Part shown: in pieces, positions 1,592-22,553 of the stretch
Layout of the letters: each line of letters begins with the position of its first letter
Position numbering within the stretch: position 1 is the first letter of the stretch
DNA from: Thermoanaerobaculia bacterium
GTDB lineage: Bacteria; Acidobacteriota; Thermoanaerobaculia; Gp7-AA8
Reading direction: 5' to 3'
NCBI GenBank assembly: GCA_035629395.1
Contig: DASPHZ010000056.1
Coordinates: 116,461 to 148,460, forward strand
Length of the DNA stretch: 32,000 nt
Position numbers and translations under genes: made by a program
Notes under the pieces: generated by a model
What the model was told of the DNA's origin: nothing
Database searches by the model: none
Seen by the model: the letters and a program-made list of their open reading frames with translations, nothing else

Positions 1592-1733
1592 ACGGTCCTC
1601 CGAGATCTGACGTTTCGCGGCGGCTCCATTGCCACCGACATTCCGTGCAGATGGAAAGACCGCCACGATGTTCCGATGGACCAACGGAAAAAAACTCCGT
1701 AAAACGGAAGACGTAATACCTGATGGTGGAACG

Positions 1734-4700: not shown

Positions 4701-4808
4701 ATCGAGGGACGCACGAATGCGGAGGCGCTACGCCGCGCCGCGTTGAAGGTGCGCGCGAACCACAAGCATCCGTTCTACTGGGCCCCGTTCGTCGTCATCG
4801 GGCGGTAG
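1734..4808 (+). CDS. TPR-repeat protein with C-terminal CHAT (caspase-like) peptidase domain; N-terminal hydrophobic leader and NTF2-like region
   Basis: About 15 TPR-like 40-aa repeats (for example A..L..LG.....G....A...YE.AL.I). The C-terminus carries the CHAT dyad motifs LHFATHGVLD (His codon 4401-4403) and LSACETARG (Cys codon 4542-4544), and ends HPFYWAPFVVIGR. The ATG at 1734 follows GGTGGA, and the codons upstream of it have low GC3. Confidence 0.92.
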   Translation: MLRAQLLFLALLTVSDPPPLRERAEAFVTAMNAGDVARVTSMWHSQSTTGRHRISRLGLDGVQLSISAVRDDAAILEVRDATQTLVAEYELRFQQENGEWRIWSLLSTSAAQADDPRNATPTLPLVRELLYRAAEAHEEGRNDRAEADYTIAGAYAEQLGHTLFRTTAERGLGNISLGRGDTERAARHFEKSLELARAANDRNSIARSLNALANVDETVGNWANAETRLREAYEIFREMGKKTLAGYMLNSIGNAYAARSDYKEAQRHYEQALQLFEEIGDLRGTSAALNNLGINHRVQGSLRESVALFHRAIEINRTIGTQALSGMATSWSNLGQSLTLQGNYVAALQAFQEALILNEKLGRADTIRATLDKAGDMHRRLGDLEQARTFFERSLVIAEKAEAKPGIASSMQSLANVRLDSGDARGALTLYEKALAIDTETGNRAAVARGLESIGRAQLQLRNREAARKAFERSFTIAEEINDRELMASSLVRRASITEAFEAVTLAERAVAIASELGLPEVEWQAHLGLGRAYRGARRTSEAREEVERAVQIVEELRRGVPGEEMTRQQAFENMIAPYHELVSLLIAQGENAAALEYAERAKARVLLDVLRYGRPDVGNALTPEERQREAALTAQLADVNREYRRALVAGTQNAALSAKLRRARLELDRFVTNLHAAHPQLRIESGEVEPITAAQLRAMKEADAFVEFVVTDDATYRFTIAGGVVQVATIPIPKAKLQSEVLHFRELLADRDLTYAAAGRSLYDRLFGSMNVSGTLCIVPDGPLWELPFQALQPSATEFLIDRHAVFLAPSLTVLREMSAAPRTDAATRLLAFGFPNALAPLPQSETEVRSIAALYGARNSRVYLRSEAREEVVKAEAGAFDVLHFATHGVLDDRNALYSRLVFSPPAAKQEDGLLEAREIMRLQLRARLAVLSACETARGRVGDGEGLIGMSWALFVAGAPASVVSQWKVDSTSTTDLMIEFHRNLRIEGRTNAEALRRAALKVRANHKHPFYWAPFVVIGR

Positions 4809-7020: not shown

Positions 7021-8958
7021 ATGCAGCAGTTTCGATACGACATCCGCAACGTTGCCATCATCGCCCACGTCGACCACGGGAAGACCACGCTCGTCGACGC
7101 ACTCCTCAAGCAGGCCGGCGCCGTCCGTGCGAACCAGCACATGGACGAGCGGGTCATGGACTCGAACGACCTCGAGAAGGAGCGCGGGATCACGATCCTG
7201 GCCAAAAACACGTCCATTCGCTACCTCGTCGATCAGCCCGACGCCCTCGGGCATCCGGTCCATCACGAGCCCACGCACACCGCCAGCGGCCACGATCTGC
7301 CGGCCGAGTTCATCCATCCGGCCGAGGTGAAGATCAACATCGTCGACACGCCGGGCCACGCCGATTTCGGCGGTGAGGTCGAGCGCGTCCTGTCGATGGT
7401 CGACGGCGTCATCCTCCTCGTCGACGCCGCCGAAGGTCCGATGCCGCAGACGCGTTTCGTCCTGCGCAAAGCCCTCGGGCTCGGCCTCCTGCCGATCGTC
7501 GTGATCAACAAGATCGACCGGCCCGACCAGCGTGCGACGGAAGTCGTCAACGAAGTCTTCGATCTGATGATCGAGCTCGGCGCGTCGGACGAGCAGATCG
7601 ACTTCCCGATCCTCTACGCCATCGGCCGCAAAGGCATCGTGCGGCACGAGCTGACCGACACCACCGAGGATTGCCGTCCGCTGTTCGACGCGATCCTCAA
7701 GCGCATTCCGCCGCCCCCGGGCGTGCAGGATTCGCCGCTGCAGCTCCTCGTCAGCGCCATCGACTACAACGAATACGTCGGCCGCCTCGGCGTCGGCCGC
7801 ATCCAGCGCGGCAAGATCCGCCAGAACACGGACGTCGTCCTCATCCTCCGCGACGGCACGCAGAAGAAAGGACGCGTCACGAAGCTGTGGGCGTTCGAAG
7901 GACTCAAGCGTGCGGAGATCGAAGAAGCGGGAGCGGGTGAGATCGTCTGCGTCGCAGGCTTCGCGGACGTCGAGATCGGCGAGACCTTTGCCGCCGCCGA
8001 CGCGCCGGAGCGCCTCGAGCCGATCGCGATCGACGAGCCGACCGTCTCGATGTACTGGATGGTCAACGACTCGCCGTTCGCCGGCACCGAGGGCAAGTAC
8101 GTCACCTCACGCAACATCAAAGACCGTCTCGACAAAGAGCTGCGCAAAGACGTTGCGCTGCGCGTGCGTGAGACCGGTCAGGCCGACCGCTTCGAAGTGG
8201 CGGGACGCGGCGAGCTGCATCTCTCGATCCTCGCGGAGAACATGCGCCGCGAGGGCTACGAGTTCGCCCTGTCGCGCCCGCAGGTCATCCTCAAACAGGT
8301 CGACGGGCAGACGATGGAGCCGTACGAGGCCCTCGTCGTCGACGTCGAGGAAGCGCACGTCGGCACGATCATGGAGAAGATCCAGCAGCGCCGCGGCGAG
8401 ATGACCGACATGGTCAACCCCGGCACCGGACGCGTGCGCATCGAGTTCAAGATCCCCACCCGCGGCCTGTTCGGCATCCGCACGGAGTTCCTCTCCGAAA
8501 CGCGCGGCACGGGACTGCTGTACCACACGTTCCTCGAGTACGGTCCGTATCGCGGCGAGCTCGCCTCGCGCAATCGCGGTGCGCTCGTGGCGAAGGAAGC
8601 CGGCGACACGACCGCGTACGCGATCGAGCCGCTGCAGGAGCGCTCGACGCTCTTCATCGGCCCGGGCCTCAAGGTCTACGGCGGACAGGTCGTCGGCGAG
8701 AACTCGCGCGACGTCGACATGGTCGTCCAGGTCTGCCGCGCCAAGCACCTCACCAACATGCGCGCGTCGGGCTCGGACATGGCCGTCAAGCTCACTCCCC
8801 CGCGCCTCATGACGCTCGAGCAGTGCCTCGAATGGATCGAGGACGACGAGCTCGTGGAAGTGACGCCGGAATCGATCCGCATCCGCAAGCAGCTCCTCGA
8901 CCATTCGCAGCGCGAAGTCGCGGCGAAGAAGGCGAAGAAGGCGGCCGCGGAAGGCTGA
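7021..8958 (+). CDS. typA: translational GTPase TypA/BipA
   Basis: Near-identical G-domain motifs to BipA: [56 protein letters not shown]. The characteristic C-terminal domain is also present ([12 protein letters not shown]...[18 protein letters not shown]). Confidence 0.97.
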
Positions 8959-9013: not shown

Positions 9014-9277
9014 ATGCACGTGGCGGTGGCGGCACACGTTCGGACGACGGCGGACGGCGACGGAGCGGTGCTGCTCGATCTCGAGCGCGGCGTGTATCTG
9101 TCGCTGAATCGCTCCGGTGCCGCCATCTGGAGCGAGCTGACGGCCGGCGCTGCGCCGGCGGACGTTGCCGCTCGGATCGCGGCGCGCTGCTCGAAACCGG
9201 TGGCCGAGGTCGAGCGCGACGTGCGCTCCTTCGTGGACGAGCTCGCGCGCCGCGGCCTCGTCCGCGTCAGCGGGTGA
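9014..9277 (+). CDS. PqqD-like RiPP recognition element (lasso peptide B1 protein)
   Basis: An 87-aa protein with the PqqD-family pattern (GAVLLDLERGVYLSLNRSGAAIWSEL ... VERDVRSFVDELARRGLV). It sits immediately upstream of the B2 and cyclase genes. Confidence 0.85.
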   Translation: MHVAVAAHVRTTADGDGAVLLDLERGVYLSLNRSGAAIWSELTAGAAPADVAARIAARCSKPVAEVERDVRSFVDELARRGLVRVSG

Positions 9278-9281
9278 TCGC

Positions 9282-9656
9282 ATGCGCACACTCCTGCTCC
9301 TCCTGGCGTGGCTCGCGTTTCTCGTGACCTCGCTCGCGGTGCGATTCGCCGGATTCACGCGTGTGCATCGGCGCGTGCGCCAATGGCGTGTTTCGCGATC
9401 GCGTCGACGGCCGTCGATCGAGATGCTGCGCGATGCGATCGAAGCGGCCGCACGATGGACGCTGCTTCCCGTGCAATGTCTGGAGCGCGCGGCCGTGACG
9501 ACGTGCCTCTTCCGCACGTTCGGCTACGACGCGGCTTTCGTCATCGGCGTGCGGCGTACGCCTTTCTATGCACACGCGTGGACGGAGCTCGACGGTGCGG
9601 TACTGACCGACCCCGCCGAGCGCGTGCGCGAGCTCGCCGTCGTGGAGCGTTGCTGA
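9282..9656 (+). CDS. lasso peptide B2 leader peptidase (transglutaminase-like Cys protease)
   Basis: The N-terminus has a TM-like segment. Cys/His/Asp triad context typical of lasso B2 proteins is present: QCLERAAVTTCLFRTFGYDAAFVIGV ... FYAHAWTELDGAVLTD. The ATG at 9282 lies 5 nt after the B1 stop. Confidence 0.85.
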   Translation: MRTLLLLLAWLAFLVTSLAVRFAGFTRVHRRVRQWRVSRSRRRPSIEMLRDAIEAAARWTLLPVQCLERAAVTTCLFRTFGYDAAFVIGVRRTPFYAHAWTELDGAVLTDPAERVRELAVVERC

Positions 9657-9657
9657 C

Positions 9658-11484
9658 GTGAGCGTCGTCGCGGGCGTGCTTGCGTTCGACGGCGCTCCCG
9701 TGGCCGAGGAACAGCACGCGCTGCAGGCGTATGCGCGGCGCTACGGCGCGGTGTCGATCGTGAGCGGCAGCGGCGTCACGCTGTTTGCGAACGACACGTT
9801 CGTCACGCGTGACGACGCGGGGCGCGTGCGTACCGCTGTCGCGATCGACGGCCGCGTCGACGTTCTCCAGGCTTACGAACGCAATCCGCACGACTTTGCG
9901 GGCCGGCTCATCGGCGACTTTGCCTTCGCGTTATGGGATGAACCGCAGCGCACGCTCTTCCTCGCGCGCGACGCCTTCGGCTCGCGTCCGCTGTACTGGC
10001 ACGGCGATGCGAAGCGCCTCGTGTGGGCGTCGCACCTCGCTCCCCTCCTCGGACTCGCGCGCGAGCCGCTGTCGATCGACCGCGATTCCCTCGCGGCCTT
10101 CGTCATCCGCGGCGCGATGCGCGACCGCACGCCCGTCGCCGAGATCCGCTCCGTCCGCGCGGCAGAACTGTGCGTCGTACGCGACGGCGTGATGCAGCGC
10201 TCGCGGCACTGGTCGCTCGATCCACACGCCACCGTCGACGTCCGCTCGGATGCAGAGGCGGAGGAGAAGCTGCGTGCGCTATTGAGCGAGGCGGTTCGCT
10301 CGATGACGGGCGACGGACCGGCGAGTGTGCTGCTCAGCGGAGGCGTCGACTCCTCCTCGATCGTTGCGGTCGCCGACGCGGTGCGGCCGGAACCGCCGGT
10401 GCAGACGATCTCCTGGGTTTTCGAAGCGTCGCCCACGTCGGACGAGCGGGAGTTCGTCCGCGCGGTCGAGACACATCGTGGCCGCAGGGGCGTGCACATC
10501 GGCGAGCGCGAACAGGCGCTGCTCGAATTCGATCCCGAAGATCCCGGCACCGAGATCCCGACGTCGTACGTCTGCTTCGCGCGACGCTGCGAGGCCACGC
10601 GTGCCGCCATGCGCGCGGCGGGGTCGCGCGTGCTGCTGACCGGCATCGGCGGCGATGACGTGCTGTACGGCGACTTTGGGTTCATCGGCTCGATTGCGGA
10701 TGCGCTCGCGCGCGGGCGCGTGCTGCGCGCGCTGTCGGAAGTGCGCAAGTGGGCGCCGCATGTCGGCGTGTCGCATCTGCAGTTGCTGTGGCGCTCGGGC
10801 ATCCGGCCGCTGAGCGGTGCGGCGCCGGTGTCGCTGGTCGCGCCGTGGTGGTCGCGGGAGTTTGTCGAACGGATGCACGACGGCCGAGGATGGCCGTCTC
10901 GACCGCTGCCGAGCCGCCGGTTCGACCTGCAATGCTTCGAGGGACTCGTCGGCTCGATGGCGCGGCGCTGGTATTTCGAGCACGACGAGATCGTGACGCG
11001 CGAGCCGTTTCTCTACCGGCCGCTCGTCGAGTACTGCTTCGCGTTGCCGTTCGAGCAGAAGCTGCGTCCCGGCGCGACGCGCTCGATCCTCCGCCGCGCA
11101 TTACGCGATCTCCTGCCGCCGGCCATCCTGACACGCCTCTCCAAGTGCGGGCCGGACGAAGCGCTGTTGCGTGCCGCGCAAAGACGCGCGGGTGCGCTGC
11201 GCGCGCTGTTCGCCGAGGCGCGAGTGGTGCGTCACGGCTTCGCCGACGGCACGGCCATCGACGCCGCGCTGACGAAGATCGCGCACGGCTTCGACGCCGG
11301 TGTCGCCTTTCTCCTCCGCCTCATCGCCCTCGAGCTCTGGTTGCGCTGGTTCGAGCGCCGCCCTCTCTCATCCACCGCCGCAGTCACTGAAGTCAACGGA
11401 GGAATTGCATGCACGAGCACGAAATCCAGAATGACGAGTACGAAGTCCCGACCATCCTCGAGCTCGGCGACGCCGCCGACCTGA
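9658..11484 (+). CDS. asparagine-synthetase-like lasso peptide cyclase (C protein)
   Basis: The PP-loop motif LLSGGVDSSSIV is present, the overall layout is AsnB-like, and the N-terminal Cys nucleophile is absent (starts MSVVAG). The GTG start is 2 nt after the B2 stop. The last ~40 codons are S/T/P-rich and overlap the precursor gene out of frame. Confidence 0.9.
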   Translation: MSVVAGVLAFDGAPVAEEQHALQAYARRYGAVSIVSGSGVTLFANDTFVTRDDAGRVRTAVAIDGRVDVLQAYERNPHDFAGRLIGDFAFALWDEPQRTLFLARDAFGSRPLYWHGDAKRLVWASHLAPLLGLAREPLSIDRDSLAAFVIRGAMRDRTPVAEIRSVRAAELCVVRDGVMQRSRHWSLDPHATVDVRSDAEAEEKLRALLSEAVRSMTGDGPASVLLSGGVDSSSIVAVADAVRPEPPVQTISWVFEASPTSDEREFVRAVETHRGRRGVHIGEREQALLEFDPEDPGTEIPTSYVCFARRCEATRAAMRAAGSRVLLTGIGGDDVLYGDFGFIGSIADALARGRVLRALSEVRKWAPHVGVSHLQLLWRSGIRPLSGAAPVSLVAPWWSREFVERMHDGRGWPSRPLPSRRFDLQCFEGLVGSMARRWYFEHDEIVTREPFLYRPLVEYCFALPFEQKLRPGATRSILRRALRDLLPPAILTRLSKCGPDEALLRAAQRRAGALRALFAEARVVRHGFADGTAIDAALTKIAHGFDAGVAFLLRLIALELWLRWFERRPLSSTAAVTEVNGGIACTSTKSRMTSTKSRPSSSSATPPT

Positions 11485-11566: not shown

Positions 11567-11604
11567 GAGGCCGCCGGACGGCGAGTCCGGCGGCCTCGTT
11601 TTTT
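11567..11604 (+). terminator. rho-independent terminator after the lasso precursor
   Basis: A perfect 13-bp stem, GAGGCCGCCGGAC / GTCCGGCGGCCTC, has a 5-nt loop and is followed by GTTTTTT. Confidence 0.8.
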
Positions 11605-11620
11605 GCAGGGAGCGTCGGGC

Positions 11621-12298
11621 ATGGAACAAGCCGCACGCTGTCCGCTTCGCGTTCTCGTCTTCGCCGCCTCCCTGCGCCACGATTCGCTGAACGCGAAGCT
11701 CGCGGCGCTCGTCGAAGGGATCGTGACGCGGCACGGGGCGGAGGTCGTGCACGGGTCGATGCGCGACTTCGACTGCCCGTCGTACGACGGCGACGTCGAG
11801 ACAGGCGCCGGCATCCCCGCGGGCGCGCAGAAATTGCGCGACGCGCTCCATGGCTGCGACGCGTTCGTCATCGCCTCGCCGGAGTACAACGCGTCGATGC
11901 CGGGCATCCTCAAGAACGTCGTCGACTGGACGTCGCGCTTCCGTCCGCAGCCGTTCAACGGCAAGCAGGGGTTCCTCCTGTCCGCCTCTCCGTCGATGGC
12001 TGGCGGCAACCGCGGCCTCTGGTCGCTGCGCATCCCCCTCGAGCACCTCGGCGCCCGCGTCTATCCCGACATGTTCTCCCTCCCGCAGGCGCACGAGGCC
12101 TTCCGCGAAGATGGCCACCTCACCCGCGAATCGACGGAGAAGCGCCTCGAAACGATCGTCTCCTGCTTCCTCGACATCACCGAGGCGAGCAAACACTACG
12201 GCCGGATGAAGAAACAGTGGTTCGAGTTCCTCGGCGAGCACCCGAACGAGGCCACGGACCGCGTCGAGGCGACGGAGGTCACGGCTTCGCCGGCTTGA
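11621..12298 (+). CDS. NAD(P)H-dependent FMN reductase family protein
   Basis: Flavodoxin-like FMN_red pattern: RVLVFAASLRHDSLNAKLA ... DAFVIASPEYNASMPGILKNVVDWTS ... GKQGFLLSASPSMAGG. I prefer the ATG at 11621; the TTG at 11603 lies inside the terminator. Confidence 0.85.
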   Translation: MEQAARCPLRVLVFAASLRHDSLNAKLAALVEGIVTRHGAEVVHGSMRDFDCPSYDGDVETGAGIPAGAQKLRDALHGCDAFVIASPEYNASMPGILKNVVDWTSRFRPQPFNGKQGFLLSASPSMAGGNRGLWSLRIPLEHLGARVYPDMFSLPQAHEAFREDGHLTRESTEKRLETIVSCFLDITEASKHYGRMKKQWFEFLGEHPNEATDRVEATEVTASPA

Positions 12299-14837
12299 AC
12301 TCCGGTCGAATGTCGGCCGCTTCCACGAGGATGTAGCCGGCCAGCGCGAGGATTTGCGGGATGGCACGGACCATTGCGCGATCGACGTCTTTCCACTGCG
12401 TCGGGAGCTTCGACCACGGCACCAGATACGGACTGTGTTTGGGACTGTCCGTCGCCTCATCTCCTTTGACGTACCCAGCGGCCTTCTTGCGATTCATCCA
12501 GATGTCGTGCTCCATCTTCGCGAGCTGCTCGTACTCCGCGTCGGTCAGTTTCCGCTCTTCCGCACTTCCAGCGGGAGCGATCGTGTACCCGGCATTTTCG
12601 AGCTTCCGCGGAATCCAGCGGACGGTTCCGCGATTCGCTTCTTTCGCGTGCTCGGGGAGCTTCTCGTACTCGACGAGGAGGTTGTGACGCCTCTTCCCGT
12701 CGTTGCGAACTTCCGCGTAATGCCAACCCTGTTTCGTCTTCGTCTCGCAAAACACGTCATGAGCGTATTTCGCCTGTTTTTCGAGCACCTCGATGTCGTC
12801 TGTGAACCGCGGCACGTGCGTCTCGCTGACAAAAGGCAGTTCGACGTGCAGAGCCATTTGCGGCTCCGGCGGCAGACTGGAGCTCTCGAAACGTTTCCGT
12901 CCAGCCAGCATGCTCATGGCGATGACGGACTCGAGGGATCGTGCCCCGTGCAGATACGTTTTGGTGGTCAGGAATGCCCGCAGGACGCCGGGTGCAATCC
13001 GCAGAGTTTCGTCTTTTCGGAAAAGATCTTTGCAATGCCGCAGGAGCATCGAGCGCAGCAGAATGGCGCGGCGAATGAGGTAATGCGGATCGCCGTTCGG
13101 ATTGCGCCTGTTCGGCCCGATGACGTTCAGGAATCCTTTGAGCCGGCTGACGAAGTCCGGGACCTTCAGCGCTTTCCGCTCCTCGGTGGAACCGGGCTGC
13201 ATGAAATCTTCGATGGAAGCCGCGGTTCCTCCTGCAAAGACGAAGATGCTCGTGCCGATCGGATGGGTGACCTGGTCTTCCTGAAACTCACCGTCCTGCA
13301 TGGGACCGATGAAGTAGCGAAGCCACCCAAGCGGTTTCCCTTCGTGCGTCGTATCGAACTCGTCCCAGAACACGAGTGGGATTTCTCCCTTCAGTGACAC
13401 GTCACGCACCTGATGAAACGCACCGTGCAGATCTTCATAGCGGGCGAATTGCGTGAGGTTGAACGTCAACCGCTTGATTTTTTTCTGTCCGCCGATCGAC
13501 TTTGCGATCTCTACGACCCCAAACGACTTGCCTGATCCGGGCGAGCCGAACACCGCAATCGACAGCGGCTTGCTCGGGGTGCGATCGACGTACTCCGACA
13601 ACAGTGCTTTGACACTGCGGTACGCCTCGATCTCCTCTCGGTCGACCGTAAACAGGTCGCCGATGCGCAACTGCGGAACCTCGGCCAGAGTCTGGTCGGG
13701 ACCGTAAATCGCGACTCGCGCCGCGAGCTCGTAGAGCGGATCGTCGGATTTCCCGTCCGGAGCACTCCTCGCCGCCGTGCTGAGACGGTCTTCGAGGATG
13801 CTCCAGCTCTTGCGGCTCGGATCGTGGACGACGGCAGTGGAAACGCTCTCCTTCCTTTTCAACACGGCCTGCGTAATCGCGGGAAGTGGCATCTCCGGAT
13901 TCGCTTTGTCTTTTCCGAAGCCGCTTTCGAACAGCGCACGCATTCCCGCGATCGCGCGCGGCAGAGCGTCCGCCAGTTGCGGCCAGGTGGGATGGAGCAT
14001 CACTTCGTGAGTGACCGCCGCGGCGGCGATGGTCGCGTAGCCGATCATGTGTCCCGACGGCTTCTTCGGCGGCGCCCACTCACGCTCCATCAGTGAGGGA
14101 TCAAACACCAGGCGCGGTGGCTCATCGTCGCGTGGCAGCACCATCGCACCCGCGGGGCCGAACGAAACGATGAGGTACTTACAGCGCCGCAATGCGTGCA
14201 GCGACGTGCTTTTTCTGATCTCCGTGACGACGTCCTGCGCCGTCCGCTCCCACGACACCCGCCGAATCAACTGAATCTCTTTCCGGCGCAGATCGTCAGC
14301 CGTCATCACGACGATCAATCGATCCGCGTGCTTTGCCGCGAGGTGCTGCCACAGTTTTTCGTGAAATGCCGGTACCGACGTCTTGAGGATCACCCACGGC
14401 GTGTGTTTGCCGTTGCGAATCGCGGCAGGCCAGAACTTTTCCTTCATCTCGAAGCCGAGGTCCGAGTCGAGCAGCGCCACGACCGCGGCCTCGGGATCGT
14501 CGTGAGAAATGTCGTGCGGAGGCGTGCCCTTGCTGCGTTCGACGCCGAGAAACTCGTGGACTCGCAGGACGTCATCCGTCGCGGACGTGACGACGGTATA
14601 CGTCTGATGAACAGAGGCATCACTGGCAGGACGAACGATCCCGCGAACGATTGCGTCAGGAGCGAGCTGTCGGATCAGATCTTCGAGCAGCCATGCGCCG
14701 CCGTACTGCCGAACGCGATGCACGTCTCCTGCGTCCGCCCATGACCGCGTCGCCACGATCTTGTCGCGATCGACCGAGAGGTTCCAGTCGATCATCACGT
14801 CCCCGGCCACGACCACGGTGTTTGCTGAGCTCATCAC
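12279..14837 (-). CDS. three-part protein: ribokinase/pfkB-like N-terminal domain, AAA+ ATPase, two C-terminal RyR domains
   Basis: - N-terminus: VVVAGDVMIDW, YGGAWLL, LIVSFGPAGAMV resemble pfkB-fold strands (weak, by eye).
- AAA+: Walker A FGSPGSGKS (13524-13547), Walker B LVFWDEFD, sensor-1-like FVFAGGT.
- C-terminus: two RyR-like repeats (AKYAHDVFCETKTKQGWHY...LVEYEKLPEHAKEANR and AKMEHDIWMNRKKAAGYV...PYLVPWSKLPTQWKDVDR), about 12324-12791.
- Start is either GTG 14837 or ATG 14834. Confidence 0.85.
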   Translation of the reverse strand: MMSSANTVVVAGDVMIDWNLSVDRDKIVATRSWADAGDVHRVRQYGGAWLLEDLIRQLAPDAIVRGIVRPASDASVHQTYTVVTSATDDVLRVHEFLGVERSKGTPPHDISHDDPEAAVVALLDSDLGFEMKEKFWPAAIRNGKHTPWVILKTSVPAFHEKLWQHLAAKHADRLIVVMTADDLRRKEIQLIRRVSWERTAQDVVTEIRKSTSLHALRRCKYLIVSFGPAGAMVLPRDDEPPRLVFDPSLMEREWAPPKKPSGHMIGYATIAAAAVTHEVMLHPTWPQLADALPRAIAGMRALFESGFGKDKANPEMPLPAITQAVLKRKESVSTAVVHDPSRKSWSILEDRLSTAARSAPDGKSDDPLYELAARVAIYGPDQTLAEVPQLRIGDLFTVDREEIEAYRSVKALLSEYVDRTPSKPLSIAVFGSPGSGKSFGVVEIAKSIGGQKKIKRLTFNLTQFARYEDLHGAFHQVRDVSLKGEIPLVFWDEFDTTHEGKPLGWLRYFIGPMQDGEFQEDQVTHPIGTSIFVFAGGTAASIEDFMQPGSTEERKALKVPDFVSRLKGFLNVIGPNRRNPNGDPHYLIRRAILLRSMLLRHCKDLFRKDETLRIAPGVLRAFLTTKTYLHGARSLESVIAMSMLAGRKRFESSSLPPEPQMALHVELPFVSETHVPRFTDDIEVLEKQAKYAHDVFCETKTKQGWHYAEVRNDGKRRHNLLVEYEKLPEHAKEANRGTVRWIPRKLENAGYTIAPAGSAEERKLTDAEYEQLAKMEHDIWMNRKKAAGYVKGDEATDSPKHSPYLVPWSKLPTQWKDVDRAMVRAIPQILALAGYILVEAADIRPEFKPAKP

Positions 14838-14882
14838 AAGTGGAGTGACGGGGACGTTCTTTTTCCTACCCGCGCCGCCGCG

Positions 14883-17447
14883 TCACGGCACCAGCTTCAC
14901 TCCCAATTCCCGCAGAATCGGATCGATCGGCAGGACGATGGCCGTCACTTTGTCCGAGCCCCAGAGGATGCCGACGAGGTCGTTGTTCTCGTTGAAAACG
15001 GGGGCGCCGGAGTCGCCGCCTTCGGCCTGGAAATCGGTGAGGATCTCGTCGTCGCGAACCTCCACCACATGGCCGGTGGTGATGCCGGAGCCGCGGGCGA
15101 TCATGCGCAAGGTGTCGCCGGAACGCACGGTCGCCGTCCGGCCGGAGAGGCGGCCGAAGCGCCAGAGTGAGGAGTCGATCGTGACGCCGGGGCTCAGCGC
15201 GACGAGCGCGCCGGAGCGATAGTCGTCCTTCCCCGCGCGGGCGAACGTCCCGATGACCGACCGCGCCGTGCCGCCATCGCCGGGACCGGGCTGGATGACG
15301 CGGTCGGATTTGCCGCTCACGATGAACGGCAGCGTCAGCGCGTAACGCGTCCTGCCGTCGGTCACCGCGCAACAGAGGCTGCCGGTCGCGCCGCCCGCGG
15401 AGCCGATGCTCGCGCCGAGGCGCAGGGGACGGGTCATCGAACGGAGATTCCAGCGCGTGGCGTCGAGCAGGCGCTCCGACTGCGAGGTGATGACCCGGTT
15501 GAGCACCGGCGTCATCGCGCGCTGCACGGCCTGCGTGGCCTCCACCTTCTGCTCGACGAGCTCCTTTTCGGCCGCATCCCTCGCTTCGAGAGCTGCCTGC
15601 AACTCGCTGTTGCGATGTTCGACGAGCGCCAGCGCCTGCAGCGTTTTTTCCTTCTCGGCTTTCAGCTCGGCGGCGTACTTTTGCATCGCGTCGTAATCCG
15701 CTTTGTTGACCTTGCCCAGCAGTTCCTCCGCACGCGCGGCCGCGATCTTCGCTTCGATCTCTGCTTTGTCGGCTTCCCGCTCGGCTTTGGCCTTGTCACG
15801 CTCGCTGCGCAGCTTCATCCATTGCGTGTACATCACCGCCAGCACGAGCACCGCGACGAGCGCCAGCGCGAAATGCTTCACGCGACGCTGCGAATTCACC
15901 AGCTTCCGGCTCTCCCGTACGAGCGCCTGCAGCGACTCGCTCGCGCTCAGATCACGCGCCTCTTCGCTGCTCAGCCACGCCTCCGCCTCCTCCACCTGCT
16001 CGCGATCGAGATACCCGCCGCGGCGATCGAAGCGCAGCCATTCATCGGCGAGCGCTTCCAGCCGGCGCAGCTCGACGAGCGCGCCGCGTTTGGTCTCCAG
16101 CCAGCCGACGAGCAGCGGCCAGTTGCGGATCAGCGCTTCATGCGAAACCTCGACGGTGTCCTCGTCGCCGCTCTTCCCTTTCGTACGGCGGATCAGCTTC
16201 GATTCCTCGAGCTTCCCCAAAACCTCGGCGATGCGTTGCGGATCGTCGCCGATCGATCGGACCAGCATACCGACGCGTACGCGATTGCTCGTCAGCTCCG
16301 CGCCCGCCGCCGCGCGGACCATGCGCAGCAGCACGCGGCGCATCGTGTCGCGCGATTGCGGCGTGAAACCGCGATAGACCTCGTCCGCCGAACGCTCGAG
16401 CGCCGCCAGTCCGCCGCCGAGCTTCTTGTACGCGGCGAGCGTGAGGCGATTGCGATCGCGATCCTTCCACAATCGCCACAGCGTGAACTGCAGGAGCGGC
16501 AGCGCACTCGCCTCCCCTTTCACGTCCCGGATCAGCGCGTCGGTGAGCCCCGGCTCGAGCTTCAGCTTGATATTGGCCGCCGGTTTTTCGATCGCTTCGC
16601 GCAGCTCGTCTTCGTCGAGCGCGGTCGCGGCGATGCGGCCGGCGCTGTAGACCTTCTGCAGTTCCGGAATGGTGGTGAGGCGATATTCGTAATCACTGCG
16701 GATCGTAATGACGACGCGGCAGAGCGCACCACTCGCGAGCGCCACGAGACGCCCCGCGAACGAAGAGCGCACCTGATGGTCGTCACAGAGCGTGAAGAGC
16801 TCCTCGAACTGATCGACGATCACGACCAGCGTGCGCCCGGCTCCCGCCTGCAGCAGCGCGTCGATGCCGGCCAGACTCTGCAGCGGATCGCTGCCCGGCG
16901 TGACCGGATCCGCGTAGAGCCACTGCTCGCTTCCTTCGATCGCACCGTCTTTGAGCGCGGGAATGATGCCGGCCAGCACGATCGACGACTTGCCGCTGCC
17001 GGACGATCCCGTCACGCCGACGAAATGCGACTCCCGCAGCCTTGCGAGGGCCGCGTCGACCGCGCGTTTGCGGCCGAAAAACTTCTGGCTGTCGCTTTCG
17101 CGGAATGCCGTCAGTCCGACGTACGGACAGAGATGCTCCTCGAGCTTTTCCGCGAACGAGTTGTCGAACTCCGCGAGTGTGGAATCGTTCACGCCGAGCG
17201 ACGCGCGCACGAGCGTGGTCGACCAGTAGTCGATGAGACCCTGCGCCGCATCGCGCTGCTCGTCCGCGTCGAGGTACACACCGGTCAGGCGCGCGCGGCG
17301 GATGAACAGCCGCGCCTCGTCCGCGACGTCCGTGACCGACATGGCCTTGCGCTGCCGCGTGAGCAGCGAGGTGTGCGTCGCGCGCAGCTCCACGATCGAC
17401 GGGAACGCTTCCTTCACGGTTTCCGCAGTGACAGGGGTCTCGCTCAT
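14883..17447 (-). CDS. STAND-type P-loop NTPase (nSTAND-like), then TM helix, coiled coil and C-terminal trypsin-like domain
   Basis: - NTPase: CPYVGLTAFRESDSQKFFGRKR precedes Walker A GSSGSGKS (16986-17009); Walker B is LVVIVDQFEELF.
- Winged-helix-like segments: LPLLQFTLWRLW and VSHEALIRNWPLLVGWL.
- TM helix HFALALVAVLVLAVMYTQWM (15816-15875), then a K/E/A-rich coiled coil.
- Trypsin-like domain with GDSGAP (Ser codon 15009-15011).
- The ATG at 17447 overlaps the TIR gene stop (ATGA). Confidence 0.88.
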   Translation of the reverse strand: MSETPVTAETVKEAFPSIVELRATHTSLLTRQRKAMSVTDVADEARLFIRRARLTGVYLDADEQRDAAQGLIDYWSTTLVRASLGVNDSTLAEFDNSFAEKLEEHLCPYVGLTAFRESDSQKFFGRKRAVDAALARLRESHFVGVTGSSGSGKSSIVLAGIIPALKDGAIEGSEQWLYADPVTPGSDPLQSLAGIDALLQAGAGRTLVVIVDQFEELFTLCDDHQVRSSFAGRLVALASGALCRVVITIRSDYEYRLTTIPELQKVYSAGRIAATALDEDELREAIEKPAANIKLKLEPGLTDALIRDVKGEASALPLLQFTLWRLWKDRDRNRLTLAAYKKLGGGLAALERSADEVYRGFTPQSRDTMRRVLLRMVRAAAGAELTSNRVRVGMLVRSIGDDPQRIAEVLGKLEESKLIRRTKGKSGDEDTVEVSHEALIRNWPLLVGWLETKRGALVELRRLEALADEWLRFDRRGGYLDREQVEEAEAWLSSEEARDLSASESLQALVRESRKLVNSQRRVKHFALALVAVLVLAVMYTQWMKLRSERDKAKAEREADKAEIEAKIAAARAEELLGKVNKADYDAMQKYAAELKAEKEKTLQALALVEHRNSELQAALEARDAAEKELVEQKVEATQAVQRAMTPVLNRVITSQSERLLDATRWNLRSMTRPLRLGASIGSAGGATGSLCCAVTDGRTRYALTLPFIVSGKSDRVIQPGPGDGGTARSVIGTFARAGKDDYRSGALVALSPGVTIDSSLWRFGRLSGRTATVRSGDTLRMIARGSGITTGHVVEVRDDEILTDFQAEGGDSGAPVFNENNDLVGILWGSDKVTAIVLPIDPILRELGVKLVP

Positions 17448-18868
17448 TTCAGTGCCTCGACGACCTCGGCCAGCGGCCTGCCGATCGTGCCGAGCTCCTC
17501 GCATTGCTCTTTCAGGTTCGTGTCGACGGTGAAGAACCGCGTGTTGGCTTTCTTGCGGAAGCGCACGAAGAAGCGGTTCATCTGCGCGGGATCGCCCGCG
17601 GCAATGGCTTCGTCGACGCTGCGCGCGTCGTCGCGGAGCGGCTGCACCCAGTCGCCCGGCGACGCCCACAGCACGGTCACCATCTTCAGGAGATCGCTCC
17701 AACTGATCTCCAGCTCGCTCGCGTCTTTCGCCGAGATGTTCGTCTCGATGCGCCGCATCTCCACCTCGACGTCCTGCCACAGGCGGTGACCGCGGACGAG
17801 AATGCCGAGGTTTTCTTCGAGGGCTTCCATGACATCGCGGGCGTGCTCGAGGGAGAGCACTTTCTCCGCGGCCATGCCGAGCTCACGGCCGGTGCGGCAG
17901 ACGAACGAAAGCGCGTCGATGACCGCTTCCAGCTCGAGATTGGCCGCCGCTTCGCCGAGACGGGCGTCGATGCGCGCGGGCTCGTTCGCAAGCACGCGAT
18001 TGAGGAGCCGCGCCGCGCCGCGCACCCCTTTTTCGTCGCGCGCCTTCACCGCCACCGCCAGCGCCTTCTGCGCCTCGGCCAGCGTGTCGATCCACGCCAT
18101 GCGCATGTTCTCGAACATCGGCCTTGCGTCGATCTCGCGCAGCGTGCCGATGGCCCGTTGCAGGTCGTTGGAGTAGTAGTCGATGGCGTCGACGGCAGTG
18201 TCGTCGTCCGCGATGCGCGGTGCGTCGCGGAGGATCGCCTCGTAGACGTGCAGTTGCACGTGGTGCAACTGGTCGTGCACGGACTTGAACGCATCGAGGC
18301 GGTGGATGAGGCCGACGATCGTGTTGAAGCGGAGCTCGTATTCGAGGAGTTTCTCGCGCACGTGTCCCGCGGAGATGAGCTCGGACATCGTCCGGAGCCC
18401 CTCGCCCACGGGTCTGGTGCGGACGACGTCGGGCGCGCCGAGGGGACGGGCGAGGCTGCGGACGAGCTTCGCCATCTGATCGCTGATGGTCGCGTCGTTG
18501 ACGCAATCGACGTACGTGCGCAGCGACAGCCACGGCGGGGCGTTGCATTTTTCGCGGAGGATCGGGATCAGCCGTCCGCGTGCGCCGGTGGGATCCTGCT
18601 GCACGCTGAGCATCCCTTCGAACTGCGACCACTCGCTGTCGACCCAGTTCTGCGTGAGCACGGCCACGGTGCGGCGCGACTGGAGGACGCCGTCCGTCAT
18701 GTTCGTGATCGAGCTGTTGCCGGCGGCGAAACCGTCCTCATCGACGAGCACGCGCAGGCCGCCGTCGCGCAGCGCCTTCACGAGCACGCCCGAAACCCAC
18801 GCCTTGTCTTTGTGGCTGTAGCTCACGAAGACGTCATGGGGGTACTCCGCCGGTGTCGTGGCGCTCAT
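17444..18868 (-). CDS. TIR-domain protein with ~330-aa all-helical C-terminal domain
   Basis: TIR motifs are HDVFVSYSHKDKAW, TVAVLTQNW and DSEWSQFE (putative catalytic Glu codon 18617-18619). I prefer the ATG at 18868 because the codons upstream of it (to GTG 18919 / ATG 18910) have low GC3. Confidence 0.88.
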   Translation of the reverse strand: MSATTPAEYPHDVFVSYSHKDKAWVSGVLVKALRDGGLRVLVDEDGFAAGNSSITNMTDGVLQSRRTVAVLTQNWVDSEWSQFEGMLSVQQDPTGARGRLIPILREKCNAPPWLSLRTYVDCVNDATISDQMAKLVRSLARPLGAPDVVRTRPVGEGLRTMSELISAGHVREKLLEYELRFNTIVGLIHRLDAFKSVHDQLHHVQLHVYEAILRDAPRIADDDTAVDAIDYYSNDLQRAIGTLREIDARPMFENMRMAWIDTLAEAQKALAVAVKARDEKGVRGAARLLNRVLANEPARIDARLGEAAANLELEAVIDALSFVCRTGRELGMAAEKVLSLEHARDVMEALEENLGILVRGHRLWQDVEVEMRRIETNISAKDASELEISWSDLLKMVTVLWASPGDWVQPLRDDARSVDEAIAAGDPAQMNRFFVRFRKKANTRFFTVDTNLKEQCEELGTIGRPLAEVVEALK

Positions 18869-18965
18869 GGATCCCTGGATGGACGGATTTCCATGAGTAT
18901 AGCCCACCATCCTCGGCACTCCACGTGCACGCCCCGTTTGTCACACCTTTACAGGAGGCTGAACG

Positions 18966-19739
18966 ATGAGAGTCGCCGTCGCCCTTTTCGCCGCCATCGT
19001 GCTCGCGCTGCCGCTCGCCGCTGCAAACGACCAGGAAGTCGAATACGAACAACTGCTGCTCACGGTCGCGCCGTCGATCGTGCATTGCGCGCGCGACTCG
19101 CGGTACGAGACGCGGCTCATCGCGTACAACGGCGACGAGAGCGCGCGCACGCTCTGTCCGGCAGGGCGCTGCATGGCCGTCGAGCCGAACACCGGCGCCG
19201 AGTTCACCGGCGATTACGCGGGCGGCGTGCCGCTGCCGGTGTTCATGTACGTGCCGAAGGAAGAAGCGGCGCGCATGCGCTTCTCGTTGATGGTCGAGAG
19301 CAGCGAGCTCAATCATCCCGAGGATCGCGCGTACACGGAATTGCCGATCGTGCGGGCCAGCGACTTCCGCGAAGGGAAGATGCAGTTCATCGGCGTCCGC
19401 CTCGACGAAGACTTCCGCCAGACCGTGCGCACGTACGGTCTCGACGGCAGGCAGACGGGACACCTGATCATGCGCGTGTACTCGCTGAAGACGGGCGAGC
19501 TCGAGCACTCCTGCCTGCACTACGTCGGCCCGCTCTCCGAGACGCCGGAACTGACCGCGGACGGCCGGCAGTTGCGTCCCTCGTTCGGAATGGAATGCAA
19601 CATGGCCGACCACGTCCACGCGCACGGGCAGAAGGTGCGCATCGAGCTCGAGTCGCTGACGCCGGGACTGAAGTACTGGGCGTTCCTGTCGATCACGAAC
19701 AACAAGACGCAGCACTTCTATACGGTGCTGCCGCAGTAG
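18966..19739 (+). CDS. secreted protein of unknown function
   Basis: GGAGG lies 7 nt before the ATG. The signal peptide is MRVAVALFAAIVLALPLAAA. GC3 is high throughout. No domain was recognised. Confidence 0.7.
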   Translation: MRVAVALFAAIVLALPLAAANDQEVEYEQLLLTVAPSIVHCARDSRYETRLIAYNGDESARTLCPAGRCMAVEPNTGAEFTGDYAGGVPLPVFMYVPKEEAARMRFSLMVESSELNHPEDRAYTELPIVRASDFREGKMQFIGVRLDEDFRQTVRTYGLDGRQTGHLIMRVYSLKTGELEHSCLHYVGPLSETPELTADGRQLRPSFGMECNMADHVHAHGQKVRIELESLTPGLKYWAFLSITNNKTQHFYTVLPQ

Positions 19740-19865: not shown

Positions 19866-22472
19866 CTACTCGGCGAGCGTCATGAGCCACACGTCCGCTT
19901 CCGTCTTGCGGTCGGAGAAGACGAGCGTGCGGGCGTCGGCGGAAAGGCTCATCGACGCGATGGGGAACGGCGCGTGGACGTCGCGGATGGCATTCGTGTC
20001 GATGTTCACGATGCGCAGGCGGCCGCCGTCGCCGTAGAGGATCTCCCGTCCGCCCGGCAGCCAGATCGCGCGCGCGCCGGTCTCGGTGAGCTCGCGATAC
20101 GTCTTCGTGGCGAATGAGTAAACGGCGATGCCCGGCCGGCTCAGCTCCCCGGCCAGCATCGTGCCGTCCGGCGACCAGGCCGTGAACTGCGCTTTGCGTC
20201 CTTGCGGTCCCGGCGGCAGCGGCGTGATGCGCCCGTCCTCGAGCACGTACGTGTTCTCGTCGTTGTAGAACGAGAGGCGTTTTCCGTCCGGCGCAACGCC
20301 CGGATACCACATCGATTGCGTCGTCGAATGCGGCACGCGCGCGAGCCCGCTGCCGTCGGCGTGGATGCTCCAGATCTCGTAGCGTCCGGTCTCGCGCTGC
20401 GAGTAGAAGTAGATCGTCGAGCCGTCGGGCGACCACGTCGCGCCGCGGTCGCGCGCCATGTCGTTCGTGAGCTGGCGGATCTCCCCCGTCGCGATCTCGA
20501 TCACGTACAGGTCTTCCTGCCCGCCGCGATTGGTGATGGCGACGAAGCGCCCATCCGGCGACACCTGCGAGCTGAAGACGAGGAACGAGCCCGCGACGAT
20601 CGGCCTGGACTCGCCGAGAATCGCGCCGGATGCGGGATCGAACGGCGCGCTGCGCATCGACTCGCTCTGATCGATCGACGCGAACAGCATGCGCTTCCCG
20701 TCCATGGCCATGCTGAAGTGGCCGCTGTAGCGCGCGGGCGTCGTCACCGGCTCGGGCGTGCCGCGCGGCTTGCCGCTCTCCTCGTCGATGCGCACGCGCC
20801 ACAGATTCATCGCGCCGTTGCGATCGCTGCCGAAGTAAAGATGTTGACCATCCGGCGACCAGGCCGGATTCCAGTCCACCGCCACGTCCTCGGTCACCCG
20901 CACCACCGTCGACGCCGGATCCTTCGCGTTCGGATCGATGGTCCAGAGATCGCGCTGCGCGCCGTCGCCGATGATGCTCCAGTACGCGATGCGCGAGCCG
21001 TGCGGCGACCACGCCGGCTGCACGGCGTCCGACGCGAGCAGCTTCCGCTCCGCGCCGCTGGCCACGTCGACGACGAGGAGGCTGCTCATCTTCCCGCGCG
21101 ACGTCGGCACGTACCCCACCGGTTCAGTGGCGCACGCGATCTGCTTGCCGTCCGGCGACCAGGTCGGGTTGAAGCACGAGGCGGTGATGCGGCGATTCGA
21201 CTCGCCTGTCGCGCCCATGATGAAGATCCCGCCGCCGTCGCACTCGGAGCGGTAGGCAATCATCGACCCGTCGGGGGAAAACGCCGGCTGCGAGTCCGCG
21301 GCGCGGCAGCGTTTGGTGAGGTTGATGGCATTGCGGCCGGTGACGCGCTGCAGATAGATGTCCGCGTTCGGACCGCTGCCGCGCGCGAAGACGAACGTCT
21401 CCCCGTCCGGCGCGATCGACGGCGCGAGATCGAGCCCGTCCTGCACGGTCAGTTGCGTGAACGACGCCGTCACCGCCTGCGCACCGGCGCTGCGGCCGCG
21501 CAGCAGCCACCCGGCCGTGAGTCCCACGATCAGCAAGGCCAGGGCGCCCCCGATCGCGGCCCACCGCTTCGGCGAGATTGCCGGCACTTCCATCGTCGGC
21601 ACCGTGCCCGAAGCGGAGGAGAGCATCTCCAGATGAAACGCGAGATCGCGTGCGGACTGGAAGCGCTGCTCCGGACTCTTCTCCAGGCAATGCCGCACGA
21701 CGCGATCGAGTCCCGGGGTCACATTCGGATTCGCGCCGACGAGGTCCGGCGGATCTTCGCGCAGGATCACCGACATCGTGTCGGCGGGCGAGGTGCTGCG
21801 GAACGGATGCTCGCCGGCGAGCATCTCGTACATGACCGTGCCGAGGGAGAAGATGTCGCTGCGATGGTCAACAGCTTGACCACGCACCTGCTCGGGCGAC
21901 ATGTAGCCGACGGTGCCGATGACGGTGCCGGGCGAGGTGTCCTGCTCCATCGTGTCGTCGTCGGCGAGGGCGTGATCGTCGGTGCGCAGTTTGGCGACGC
22001 CGAAATCGAGGATCTTCACGCGCCCGTCTTTGGTGACGAAGAGGTTCTCCGGCTTGAGGTCGCGATGGATGATGCCGCGGTCGTGCGCGGCGGCGAGTCC
22101 GTTCGCGATCTGGATCGCGTAATCGACCGCTTTGCGGATGGGCAGCTTCATCGGCACGCCGTTGTCGCGGAGGCAACTGCGCAGCGTCTGCCCTTCGAGC
22201 AGCTCCGTGACGATGTACGGCTTCCCGTCGGCGCTCCCCGCGTCGAAGATCGTGAGGAGATTCGGATGATTGAGCGCACCGACGGCACGCGCTTCCTGCT
22301 CGAAGCGATGCATGCGGTCCGCGAACTTGGCGAAGGTCGGCGGCAGGACCTTCAACGCGACGTCGCGCCGGATGCGCGGATCATGAGCGCGGTACACCTC
22401 GCTCATTCCACCCGTTCCGATCCGCGTCACGATTTCGTACGGACCGAGGCGCGTGCCTGGTGATAACGACAT
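19866..22472 (-). CDS. Ser/Thr protein kinase fused via one TM helix to a TolB-like (PD40/WD40-like) beta-propeller
   Basis: - Hanks kinase motifs: [46 protein letters not shown].
- TM helix: [21 protein letters not shown].
- Repeated P.(W/F)SPDG. motifs, typical of PD40 repeats.
- I prefer the ATG at 22472 because the codons upstream have low GC3. Confidence 0.92.
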
Positions 22473-22510
22473 TGGACGGAGGAGATTGTACGTGGTTCGC
22501 GCTGCGCGCG

Positions 22511-22553
22511 CGGTTGTCGGTTGTCGGTTTTCCACCCGGCCGCATACCCGTTG
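22511..22553 (+). repeat. three tandem heptamers (CGGTTGT CGGTTGT CGGTTTT) running into copy A of the motif CGGTTTTCC-N12-ACCCGTTG
   Basis: Read directly. Copy A spans 22525-22553. Confidence 0.5.

Follow-up and report, generated by a model that had tools for sequence, protein, structure and literature searches.

We analyzed a 32,000-nucleotide stretch of contig DASPHZ010000056.1 from the Thermoanaerobaculia bacterium assembly GCA_035629395.1 (positions 116,461 to 148,460; referred to as the window) and examined three co-directional genes on its minus strand that together form a unit of 6.6 kb. The first, G1 (17444-18868), encodes a 474-amino-acid TIR protein with a C-terminal helical domain and would be the effector subunit. 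The second, G2 (14883-17447), encodes an nSTAND1 NTPase of 854 amino acids that is predicted to be a membrane-anchored receptor. The third, G3 (12279-14837), encodes a protein that combines a ribokinase-fold domain, an AAA+ ATPase domain and RyR domains of the Repeat12 (R12) type; it is 852 amino acids long when counted from a GTG start and 851 when counted from the ATG at 14834. As read from the sequence, the stop codon of G1 overlaps the start codon of G2 in an ATGA at 17444-17447, and a spacer of 45 nucleotides (14838-14882) separates G2 from G3. The open reading frame (ORF) of G1 can be extended to a GTG at 18919, and its homologues begin at the ATG. On the plus strand, the unit is bounded by a divergent gene for a 257-amino-acid protein (18966-19739) and by a convergent gene for a flavin mononucleotide (FMN) reductase (11603-12298), which overlaps the stop of G3 by 20 nucleotides. 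A preliminary description of the window, made from its letters and ORFs, had proposed that the three genes constitute a single conflict system. The gene order, ATGA overlap, spacer and bounding genes that it gave were all correct, as were the codons that it assigned to the TIR glutamate (18617-18619, Glu84) and to a serine in G2 (15009-15011, Ser813).

Domains and pairing of G1 and G2

The N-terminal part of G1 (residues ~11-140; 18449-18838, minus strand) matched the Pfam family TIR_2 with an E-value of 3e-22. An AlphaFold2 (AF2) model of G1 had a predicted local distance difference test score (pLDDT) of 84.5, and by Foldseek the N-terminal part superposed on TIR structures including that of the NADase AbTir. 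Glu84, the predicted catalytic glutamate, was invariant in all 36 full-length G1 homologues. By its fold and its conserved glutamate, G1 is predicted to carry a catalytic TIR domain. The remainder of the protein, which we designated G1C (residues 145-474; 17447-18436, minus strand), is an all-helical domain of 330 amino acids, so the earlier reading of G1 as a TIR with its glutamate retained plus a helical domain of about this size stood. G1C had no match in Pfam and no structural analogue in the PDB by Foldseek. TTYH2 was considered as an analogue and rejected, the Foldseek matches being of low probability; VMAP-C and the Pfam EAD families were likewise rejected as the identity of G1C or of the N-terminal region of G2, for which Pfam gave no match.

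We searched 1.84 billion representative proteins with G1C using phmmer and found the domain in 1171 representative protein clusters. It was always located at the C-terminus, behind N-terminal regions of 0 to ~500 amino acids. Among 104 members that were scanned for these N-terminal heads, TIR was the most frequent (27), followed by CHAT (15), EAD7 (8), EAD1 (7), EAD10 (4) and DUF4062 (3), while kinase, HEPN and EAD9 heads were each found in one member. This distribution suggests that G1C may serve as a constant helical docking module with swappable heads, the docking itself being suggested by synteny.

The N-terminal ~107 residues of G2 (G2N; 17127-17447, minus strand) occupy the effector or adaptor position of a STAND protein. 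A profile hidden Markov model (HMM) of G2N matched solely genes that lie directly after a G1C gene, and at two loci (L023 and L087) a TIR domain is fused straight to nSTAND1 in place of G2N. The NTPase domain (residues 108-475; 16023-17126, minus strand) matched the nSTAND1 family PF20703 at 1.4e-100, with 338 bits against a cutoff of 27.1. Its CPYxGLxxF motif, Walker A motif GSGKSS (Lys153, codon 16989-16991) and Walker B motif DQFEE were kept in 84-88 of the 88 G2 homologues, both Walker motifs being invariant. A single transmembrane (TM) helix follows (residues ~524-544; 15816-15878, minus strand), with a 19-residue Kyte-Doolittle mean of 2.07; the corresponding segment scored at least 1.8 in 86 of the 88 homologues. 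The nSTAND architecture and the TM helix agreed with the preliminary description. In 77 of the 88 homologues the N-side of the helix was the more positively charged, which indicates an N-in/C-out topology. The coiled coil that had been placed behind the helix held up in part: residues 545-655 (15483-15815, minus strand) form a charged helical stalk, of which 71% are E, K, R, A, Q or L, and which is coiled-coil-like by residue composition alone.

The C-terminal domain of G2 (residues ~670-854; 14886-15440, minus strand) had been described as a trypsin-like protease with a GDSGAP motif and assigned the role of a proteolytic effector. The domain is not a complete protease, and an effector role for it is unlikely. 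The match to Trypsin_2 (9e-5) was below the Pfam gathering score, and only the half that contains Ser813 (residues 792-832) aligned with the V8/Spl proteases. G2 has a proline (Pro707) in the position of the catalytic histidine, which was present in 15 of the 88 aligned homologues, and no catalytic aspartate was conserved in the alignment or found in G2. The nucleophile column contained serine in 25 members, alanine in 25 and threonine in 14. The clade to which G2 belongs is predicted to carry a pseudo-protease that lacks the S1 His-Asp-Ser triad, and the triad analysis led us to reject an active effector. With its predicted position outside the cytoplasmic membrane, its lost histidine and a serine that the family does not conserve, the trypsin-fold domain is more likely to be an extracytoplasmic sensor than an effector. 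This sensor end also appears to be swappable: WD40 repeats replaced the trypsin fold at loci L019 and L175 with the TM helix retained, the domain behind the TM helix being WD40/TPR in Chthoniobacter. A subset of G2 homologues (e.g. P0145-P0151) retained both the histidine and the serine and reached Pfam Trypsin_2. A pair of cysteines, Cys692-Cys693 (15368-15373), in the first strand of the trypsin fold was conserved in 81-85 of the 88 homologues. The pair was kept despite the unconserved catalytic residues and could form a disulfide or a metal or ligand site in the extracytoplasmic domain.

We then collected G1-G2 loci by scanning GTDB species genomes with a G1 alignment and by looking up contigs. 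Apart from the window, 13 distinct loci with a full-length G1 homologue were obtained, and in all 13 a G2N-nSTAND1 gene was immediately next to it; the 13 include Chthoniobacter (Verrucomicrobiota) and a second, divergent paralogous pair within one metagenome-assembled genome (MAG). At least 16 further contig matches linked the lists of G1 and G2 homologues. The pairing also extended beyond TIR heads. At L175 a CHAT-G1C gene was followed by an overlapping gene for a G2N-nSTAND1-TM-WD40 protein, and at L176 an EAD7-G1C gene directly preceded a G2N gene that was truncated by the end of the contig. In every locus tested, the G2-type gene was immediately downstream of the G1-type gene. The proposal that TIR and STAND proteins act as one module is well supported by these loci, and the conserved unit is very probably the G1+G2 pair, a widespread two-gene nSTAND1 module with a split effector.

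The MAG with two pairs is DASPMO01, also a member of Thermoanaerobaculia; its pairs, L015 and L020, were divergent, with 49% and 25% identity to G1. At another locus (L010:1234-7969) an extra nSTAND1 gene and a TIR-containing gene were located on the opposite strand upstream of the pair. These extra copies suggest paralogous diversification.

The position of G1C, with its interchangeable heads, just upstream of G2N-nSTAND1 genes in the loci tested would amount to a general split-effector rule for nSTAND1 receptors. G1C and G2N together predict a new protein-protein docking pair and offer a route to cataloguing effectors. The presence of WD40 or dead-protease domains on the outer side of STAND receptors, if the predicted topology is right, would mean that bacterial NLR-like sensing may reach the envelope or periplasm.

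Domains and family context of G3

The N-terminal domain of G3 (13803-14837, minus strand) has a pfkB/ribokinase fold. We modelled G3 with AF2 (pLDDT 84.7, predicted template modelling score 0.85), and Foldseek aligned the domain with HldA (4e8z; E 9.5e-7) and ribokinase (1vm7) over ~350 columns at a probability of 1.0. Pfam gave no pfkB match, so the ribokinase fold is confirmed at the structure level only. The GD and GG motifs for ribose binding were invariant in 52 G3 homologues. The catalytic GAGD motif was replaced by M-I-G-Y/N across the same 52, and the domain, predicted to be kinase-dead, is on this ground probably a ligand binder and not a kinase. The AAA+ domain follows (12828-13640, minus strand), with Walker A Lys437 at codon 13527-13529 and WDEFD as its Walker B motif. 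The GxPGSGKS and DEFD motifs were invariant in the family, PF00004 is annotated on G3 homologues, and the AF2 model showed an alpha/beta core; a search of PDB sequences with this region gave no match.

The C-terminus of G3 carries a tandem RyR of the R12 type (12303-12812, minus strand) with a putative pocket for nucleotides of the ADP-ribose (ADPR) or cyclic ADPR (cADPR) type. Two stretches matched PF02026 (3.4e-25 and 88.6 bits against a cutoff of 27.4). By sequence and by Foldseek, the region matched R12 structures of RyR in the PDB, several of them nucleotide-bound, and an RyR protein of B. thetaiotaomicron. The pfkB-like, AAA+ and double RyR composition given for gene 3 in the preliminary description was thus borne out (Foldseek E of about 1e-6, invariant Walker motifs and RyR matched twice). 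Phage RyR(R12) proteins of the RyDEP group have been reported to bind 2'/3'cADPR at nanomolar affinity or to cleave them (Lopez Rivera et al., PMC13232231). In these proteins cleavage uses a His75/Asp117 dyad, with Trp78 stacking on the adenine and His100 in contact with the phosphates (PMC13232231). We aligned RyDEP gp78 (MN234187; L177:14664-15080) to the two G3 repeats. At the positions of H75/W78/H100/D117, repeat 1 had H/F/H/N and repeat 2 had H/W/S/D, and all 52 G3 homologues had the same His, Trp and Asp in repeat 2. From this alignment, G3 and its homologues are predicted to form a family of cellular RyR proteins in which the nucleotide pocket is preserved.

It had been speculated that a TIR-derived product is read by the ribokinase-fold domain of G3. 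The idea that G3 reads such a product became more plausible in view of the binding and cleavage of 2'/3'cADPR by R12 domains and of the genomic coupling to TIR-like genes described below. The likeliest signal-reading element would now be the RyR tandem, which could act either alongside the kinase-dead ribokinase-fold domain or in its place.

The G3 family is large, with more than 2136 homologues in Acidobacteriota, Planctomycetota (e.g. Gimesia algae) and Chloroflexota. We surveyed its context in 80 metagenomic loci by clustering the neighbouring ORFs de novo and searching with HMMs. A SLOG-like neighbour was found in 38 of the 80 loci and was immediately downstream and co-directional in 21. 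A DUF4062/TIR neighbour was found in 28 of the 80, the partner types being DUF4062-STAND-TPR/WD40, TIR-FGE-sulfatase and TIR-WD40 proteins; DUF4062 is a TIR-like NADase (10.64898/2026.05.01.722283). When we considered the 39 loci that had at least 6 kb outside G3, 28 had a SLOG or a DUF4062/TIR partner. A set of 69 control loci (986 kb) yielded neither SLOG-like nor DUF4062 genes. The SLOG-like partner has ~190 amino acids and the motifs GVTGHR, EGADR, WDG and GGT, and its long forms are fused to SLATT_1/3 effector domains with two TM segments. Its label is based on weak Pfam matches to YpsA/YAcAr/DprA, on these motifs and on the SLATT fusions; its profile gave only a marginal match, to a nucleoside 2-deoxyribosyltransferase, among PDB sequences.

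In other genomes, a conserved operon was seen that runs from G3 through a SLOG-like(-SLATT) gene to a DUF4062/TIR-STAND-TPR/WD40 gene (L092, L093, L097, L121, L005 from Gimesia algae CP036343, and ~30 others). A fusion of G3 with CHAT also exists (P0033). CHAT genes adjoin the G3 homologues of L001 and L172, so a second recurring association of the family is possible. A phage origin of G3 was considered and rejected: one IMG/VR contig had similarity to the AAA+ domain only, and three phage records had similarity to the RyR domains only. The protein on that 118-kb viral contig (L170, IMGVR_UViG_3300048597_000653) was 37% identical to the AAA+ region of G3 (residues 387-665), and the similarity did not extend to the ribokinase-fold or RyR domains.

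A broader reading would make the G3 family host-side receptors or degraders of ADPR signals derived from TIR or DUF4062 proteins, at the core of an undescribed, widespread Thoeris-like system of G3, SLOG(-SLATT) and DUF4062/TIR-STAND proteins. In the window, the family member would be wired to a membrane-spanning nSTAND1 pseudo-protease receptor that fires a separate TIR through G1C and G2N. We regard this reading as rather unlikely.

We know of no immune role of RyR domains other than phage counter-defence. If G3 reads or quenches signals, it would represent a new receptor class in immune signalling by derivatives of nicotinamide adenine dinucleotide (NAD), and it would bear on why animal ryanodine receptors carry the RyR domain. 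The known role of the domain is in counter-defence against cADPR signalling (2026, PMC13232231).

Relation of G3 to the pair and proposed mechanism

A synteny check showed that the three-gene triad of the preliminary description is not conserved. G3 was present within 10 kb of the pair in only 2 of the 14 G1-G2 loci, the window and L006, and was absent from the other 12; pairs with CHAT and EAD heads also lacked it in the available DNA. It is hence quite improbable that the locus encodes a true three-component system, with a STAND sensor acting on a TIR signal generator, G3 as the effector that is required to read the signal, and a proteolytic effector in the form of the trypsin-like domain. 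The incomplete protease triad, the replacement of its serine in most relatives and the predicted location of the trypsin-fold domain outside the membrane also speak against such a system. In its favour are the tight co-directional arrangement, the link of the G3 family elsewhere to TIR-like genes, the ability of RyR domains to bind TIR-derived signals (PMC13232231), and the presence of a second, non-orthologous G3 beside the pair in L006. No terminator-like site was found on the minus strand between G1 and G3, where the promoter/terminator scan is uninformative for a genome of such high guanine-cytosine (GC) content (window GC ~0.66).

The window and L006 are closely related, with 84-88% identity in flanking genes, 80% in G1 and 71% in G2. 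In contrast, the G3 of L006 (L006:7843-10293) was only 46% identical to that of the window, and the two copies were located on opposite sides of the FMN-reductase gene. They are non-orthologous, which points to repeated acquisition at one spot. G3 appears from this comparison to be a separate acquisition and not a part of the conserved G1+G2 unit.

We favour, with somewhat better than even confidence, a composite explanation in which G1 and G2 form a conserved conflict pair and G3 was acquired separately and likely acts downstream of the TIR. The cytoplasmic part of G2 would consist of G2N and an ATPase-competent nSTAND1 domain, connected through the TM helix and coiled-coil stalk to the degenerate trypsin fold outside, which would sense a ligand or damage. 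G1 would dock on G2N through its helical G1C domain. Activation of the receptor would lead to oligomerisation of nSTAND1 and thereby to clustering of the TIR domains with their Glu84, and the clustered TIR domains would hydrolyse NAD+ or make ADPR-type signals. G3, the later and separate acquisition, would most likely act downstream of the TIR: an ADPR-derived product would be bound in its R12 pocket and might be cleaved there, perhaps with participation of the kinase-dead ribokinase fold. Ligand binding would be coupled to AAA+ activity, with G3 in the role of either a second effector or a regulator.

Several observations weigh against this explanation, and the first group of them, to which the absence of G3 from 12 loci belongs, concerns G3. 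The nearest relatives of the window G3 (57-69% identity; L001, L003, L173 and L174) were solitary, in unrelated neighbourhoods without TIR or STAND genes. The GC content of the G3 gene was 0.60-0.62 as compared to ~0.66 in the neighbouring sequence, so its adjacency to the pair could reflect an insertion hot-spot. The window had neither a SLOG-like nor a DUF4062 gene. G3 could on these grounds be functionally unrelated to G1 and G2, a stand-alone regulatory or conflict ATPase that became their neighbour by chance or through an integration hot-spot, and the different positions and 46% identity of the window and L006 copies, like the many pairs with no G3 nearby, would fit with this. We nevertheless consider an unrelated G3 unlikely. 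Two independent acquisitions beside the same pair are unlikely by chance, the probability that a single copy falls within 10 kb being roughly estimated at ~0.5-1% per genome; TIR-like and SLOG genes are strongly over-represented among the neighbours of the family; and the spacer to G2 is only 45 nucleotides, with no terminator found. Reading of a TIR product by G3 is compatible with the data because of the association with TIR-like genes, the two non-orthologous G3 copies, the tight G2-G3 spacing and the RyR biochemistry. A functional link of G3 to the G1-G2 pair itself is still rather doubtful, its likelihood falling a little short of even.

The second group concerns the role of the pair. The case for an anti-phage function comes from homology of the genes, and that for the contact between G1C and G2N from synteny. 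Phages are not usually sensed by an extracytoplasmic domain, and a sensor in this position would also be compatible with envelope surveillance or kin recognition. There was no obvious defence island at the locus; the neighbours were BipA, a lasso-peptide-like cluster, the FMN reductase and a Ser/Thr kinase. The pair might not be anti-phage but a switch, set off by cues from the periplasm or from outside the cell, for envelope surveillance or for kin recognition and programmed death, of the sort that has been proposed for 'multicellular' bacteria. Such a switch would suit the predicted outside location of the sensor domain, an effector repertoire that Kaur et al. (PMC7159879, PMC8195603) described for conflict and apoptosis-like systems, and a chromosomal locus that is syntenic near BipA across Thermoanaerobaculia with no obvious mobile island. 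On the other hand, those TIR/STAND modules for which experimental data exist are anti-phage, and the paralogous copies in one MAG (L015 and L020) suggest diversifying conflict. We consider the switch improbable.

As to the surroundings, the locus is flanked by a gene for a Ser/Thr kinase with PD40 repeats (19866-22535, minus strand) and by BipA (7021-8958, plus strand). Both genes were also near G1-G2 in L007, L009 and L171, which indicates that the pair is located in a conserved chromosomal region rather than in an evident mobile island. The divergent 257-amino-acid protein has a signal-peptide-like N-terminus and gave no match in a Pfam scan. It was rejected as a fourth component: its gene was beside the pair in the close relatives L006 and L171 only and was absent in L007 and L009. 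A lasso-peptide-like biosynthetic trio occupies 9014-11484 on the plus strand. It consists of a PqqD-like ORF (9014-9277), a second ORF, transglutaminase-like, that contains an 'AHAWTE' motif and ends at 9656, and an Asn-synthase-like cyclase (9658-11484), and no precursor peptide was located with it; the syntenic trio in L006 bears the Pfam families PqqD, Transglut_core3 and Asn_synthase. A TPR-CHAT (caspase-like) protein of 1059 amino acids is encoded at 1629-4808 on the plus strand, 7.5 kb from G3.

Comparison with known systems

We compared G1, G2, G3 and the partners of the G3 family with PADLOC and NCBIfam models. No system-specific model was matched; the only matches were to generic TIR, CHAT and TPR models and to QatA and mad models through the P-loop only. 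The preliminary description had stated that the three genes match no named system and that they are of the conflict type. Both statements stand, PADLOC having given only generic TIR models and weak ATPase matches. In the literature, we found no described bacterial system that combines RyR with AAA+ or RyR with SLOG/SLATT, and no G1C/G2N coupling, TM-nSTAND1 pseudo-protease receptor or G3-SLOG-DUF4062 operon. For QatABCD, QatA scored 19.9 bits against a cutoff of 600, through the P-loop only, and no Qat partner genes were near the locus.

The closest counterparts of the G1-G2 pair are the NTP-dependent conflict systems coupled through nSTAND1 and EAD (Kaur, Burroughs, Iyer & Aravind 2020, 2021; PMC7159879, PMC8195603). 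Like G1-G2, these have an nSTAND1 core, effectors of the TIR, CHAT/caspase, EAD and kinase types, an effector that is encoded by a neighbouring gene and coupled via an adaptor region, and a variable sensor end. They differ in that both of their partners carry the same EAD, whereas the G1-G2 coupling would be heterotypic, between the 330-amino-acid G1C and the ~100-amino-acid G2N. No Pfam EAD was found on G1 or G2, although other G1C proteins carry EAD1, EAD7, EAD9 or EAD10. A further difference is that the TM helix of G2 would place the sensor, a degenerate trypsin fold, outside the membrane. With Avs and bNACHT, G2 shares a STAND NTPase, a C-terminal sensor and the logic of an N-terminal effector. 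Unlike them, it belongs to the nSTAND1 clade, has its effector on a separate polypeptide, and is predicted to be a TM receptor with an external sensor. PADLOC gave no match to an Avs or NACHT model. The arrangement also departs from that of Avs, where one polypeptide carries an N-terminal effector, a STAND domain and a TPR-like cytosolic sensor at its C-terminus; in G2 the C-terminal domain is preceded by a TM helix.

The locus resembles Thoeris in the TIR of G1 with its catalytic glutamate, in the neighbouring G3 with its candidate domains for binding ADPR signals, and in weak PADLOC matches to ThsB. It differs from Thoeris, whose ThsA-type effectors join a SLOG or Macro sensor to SIR2, a TM part or a protease, in that PADLOC gave no ThsA match and no SLOG or Macro effector was found in the window. 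In addition, the TIR of G1 would be tethered to a STAND receptor rather than free-standing, and G3, with its RyR, AAA+ and ribokinase-fold domains, is no known Thoeris effector and no constant partner. Thoeris includes a type IV in which a TIR signals to a caspase-like protease (Rousset 2025, as cited in PMC13581612). G3 shares PF02026 with the phage RyDEP proteins, and in its repeat 2 both the His/Asp dyad and the Trp that stacks the adenine are retained; RyDEP is a phage anti-defence protein of ~138 amino acids that forms homodimers, whereas G3 is a cellular protein of 852 amino acids in which the R12 domain is an internal tandem repeat joined to AAA+ and ribokinase-fold domains.

The preprint on DUF4062 and the one on Evangelion do not mention RyR, SLOG or ribokinase-fold partners. 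In the DUF4062 systems (Swarozyc and Evangelion; 2026 preprints), the DUF4062-STAND proteins are of the kind that usually accompany the G3 family in other genomes; unlike these, the TIR of the window is canonical and not a DUF4062. To our knowledge, it is a new finding that members of the G3 family are associated with TIR-like and SLOG genes.

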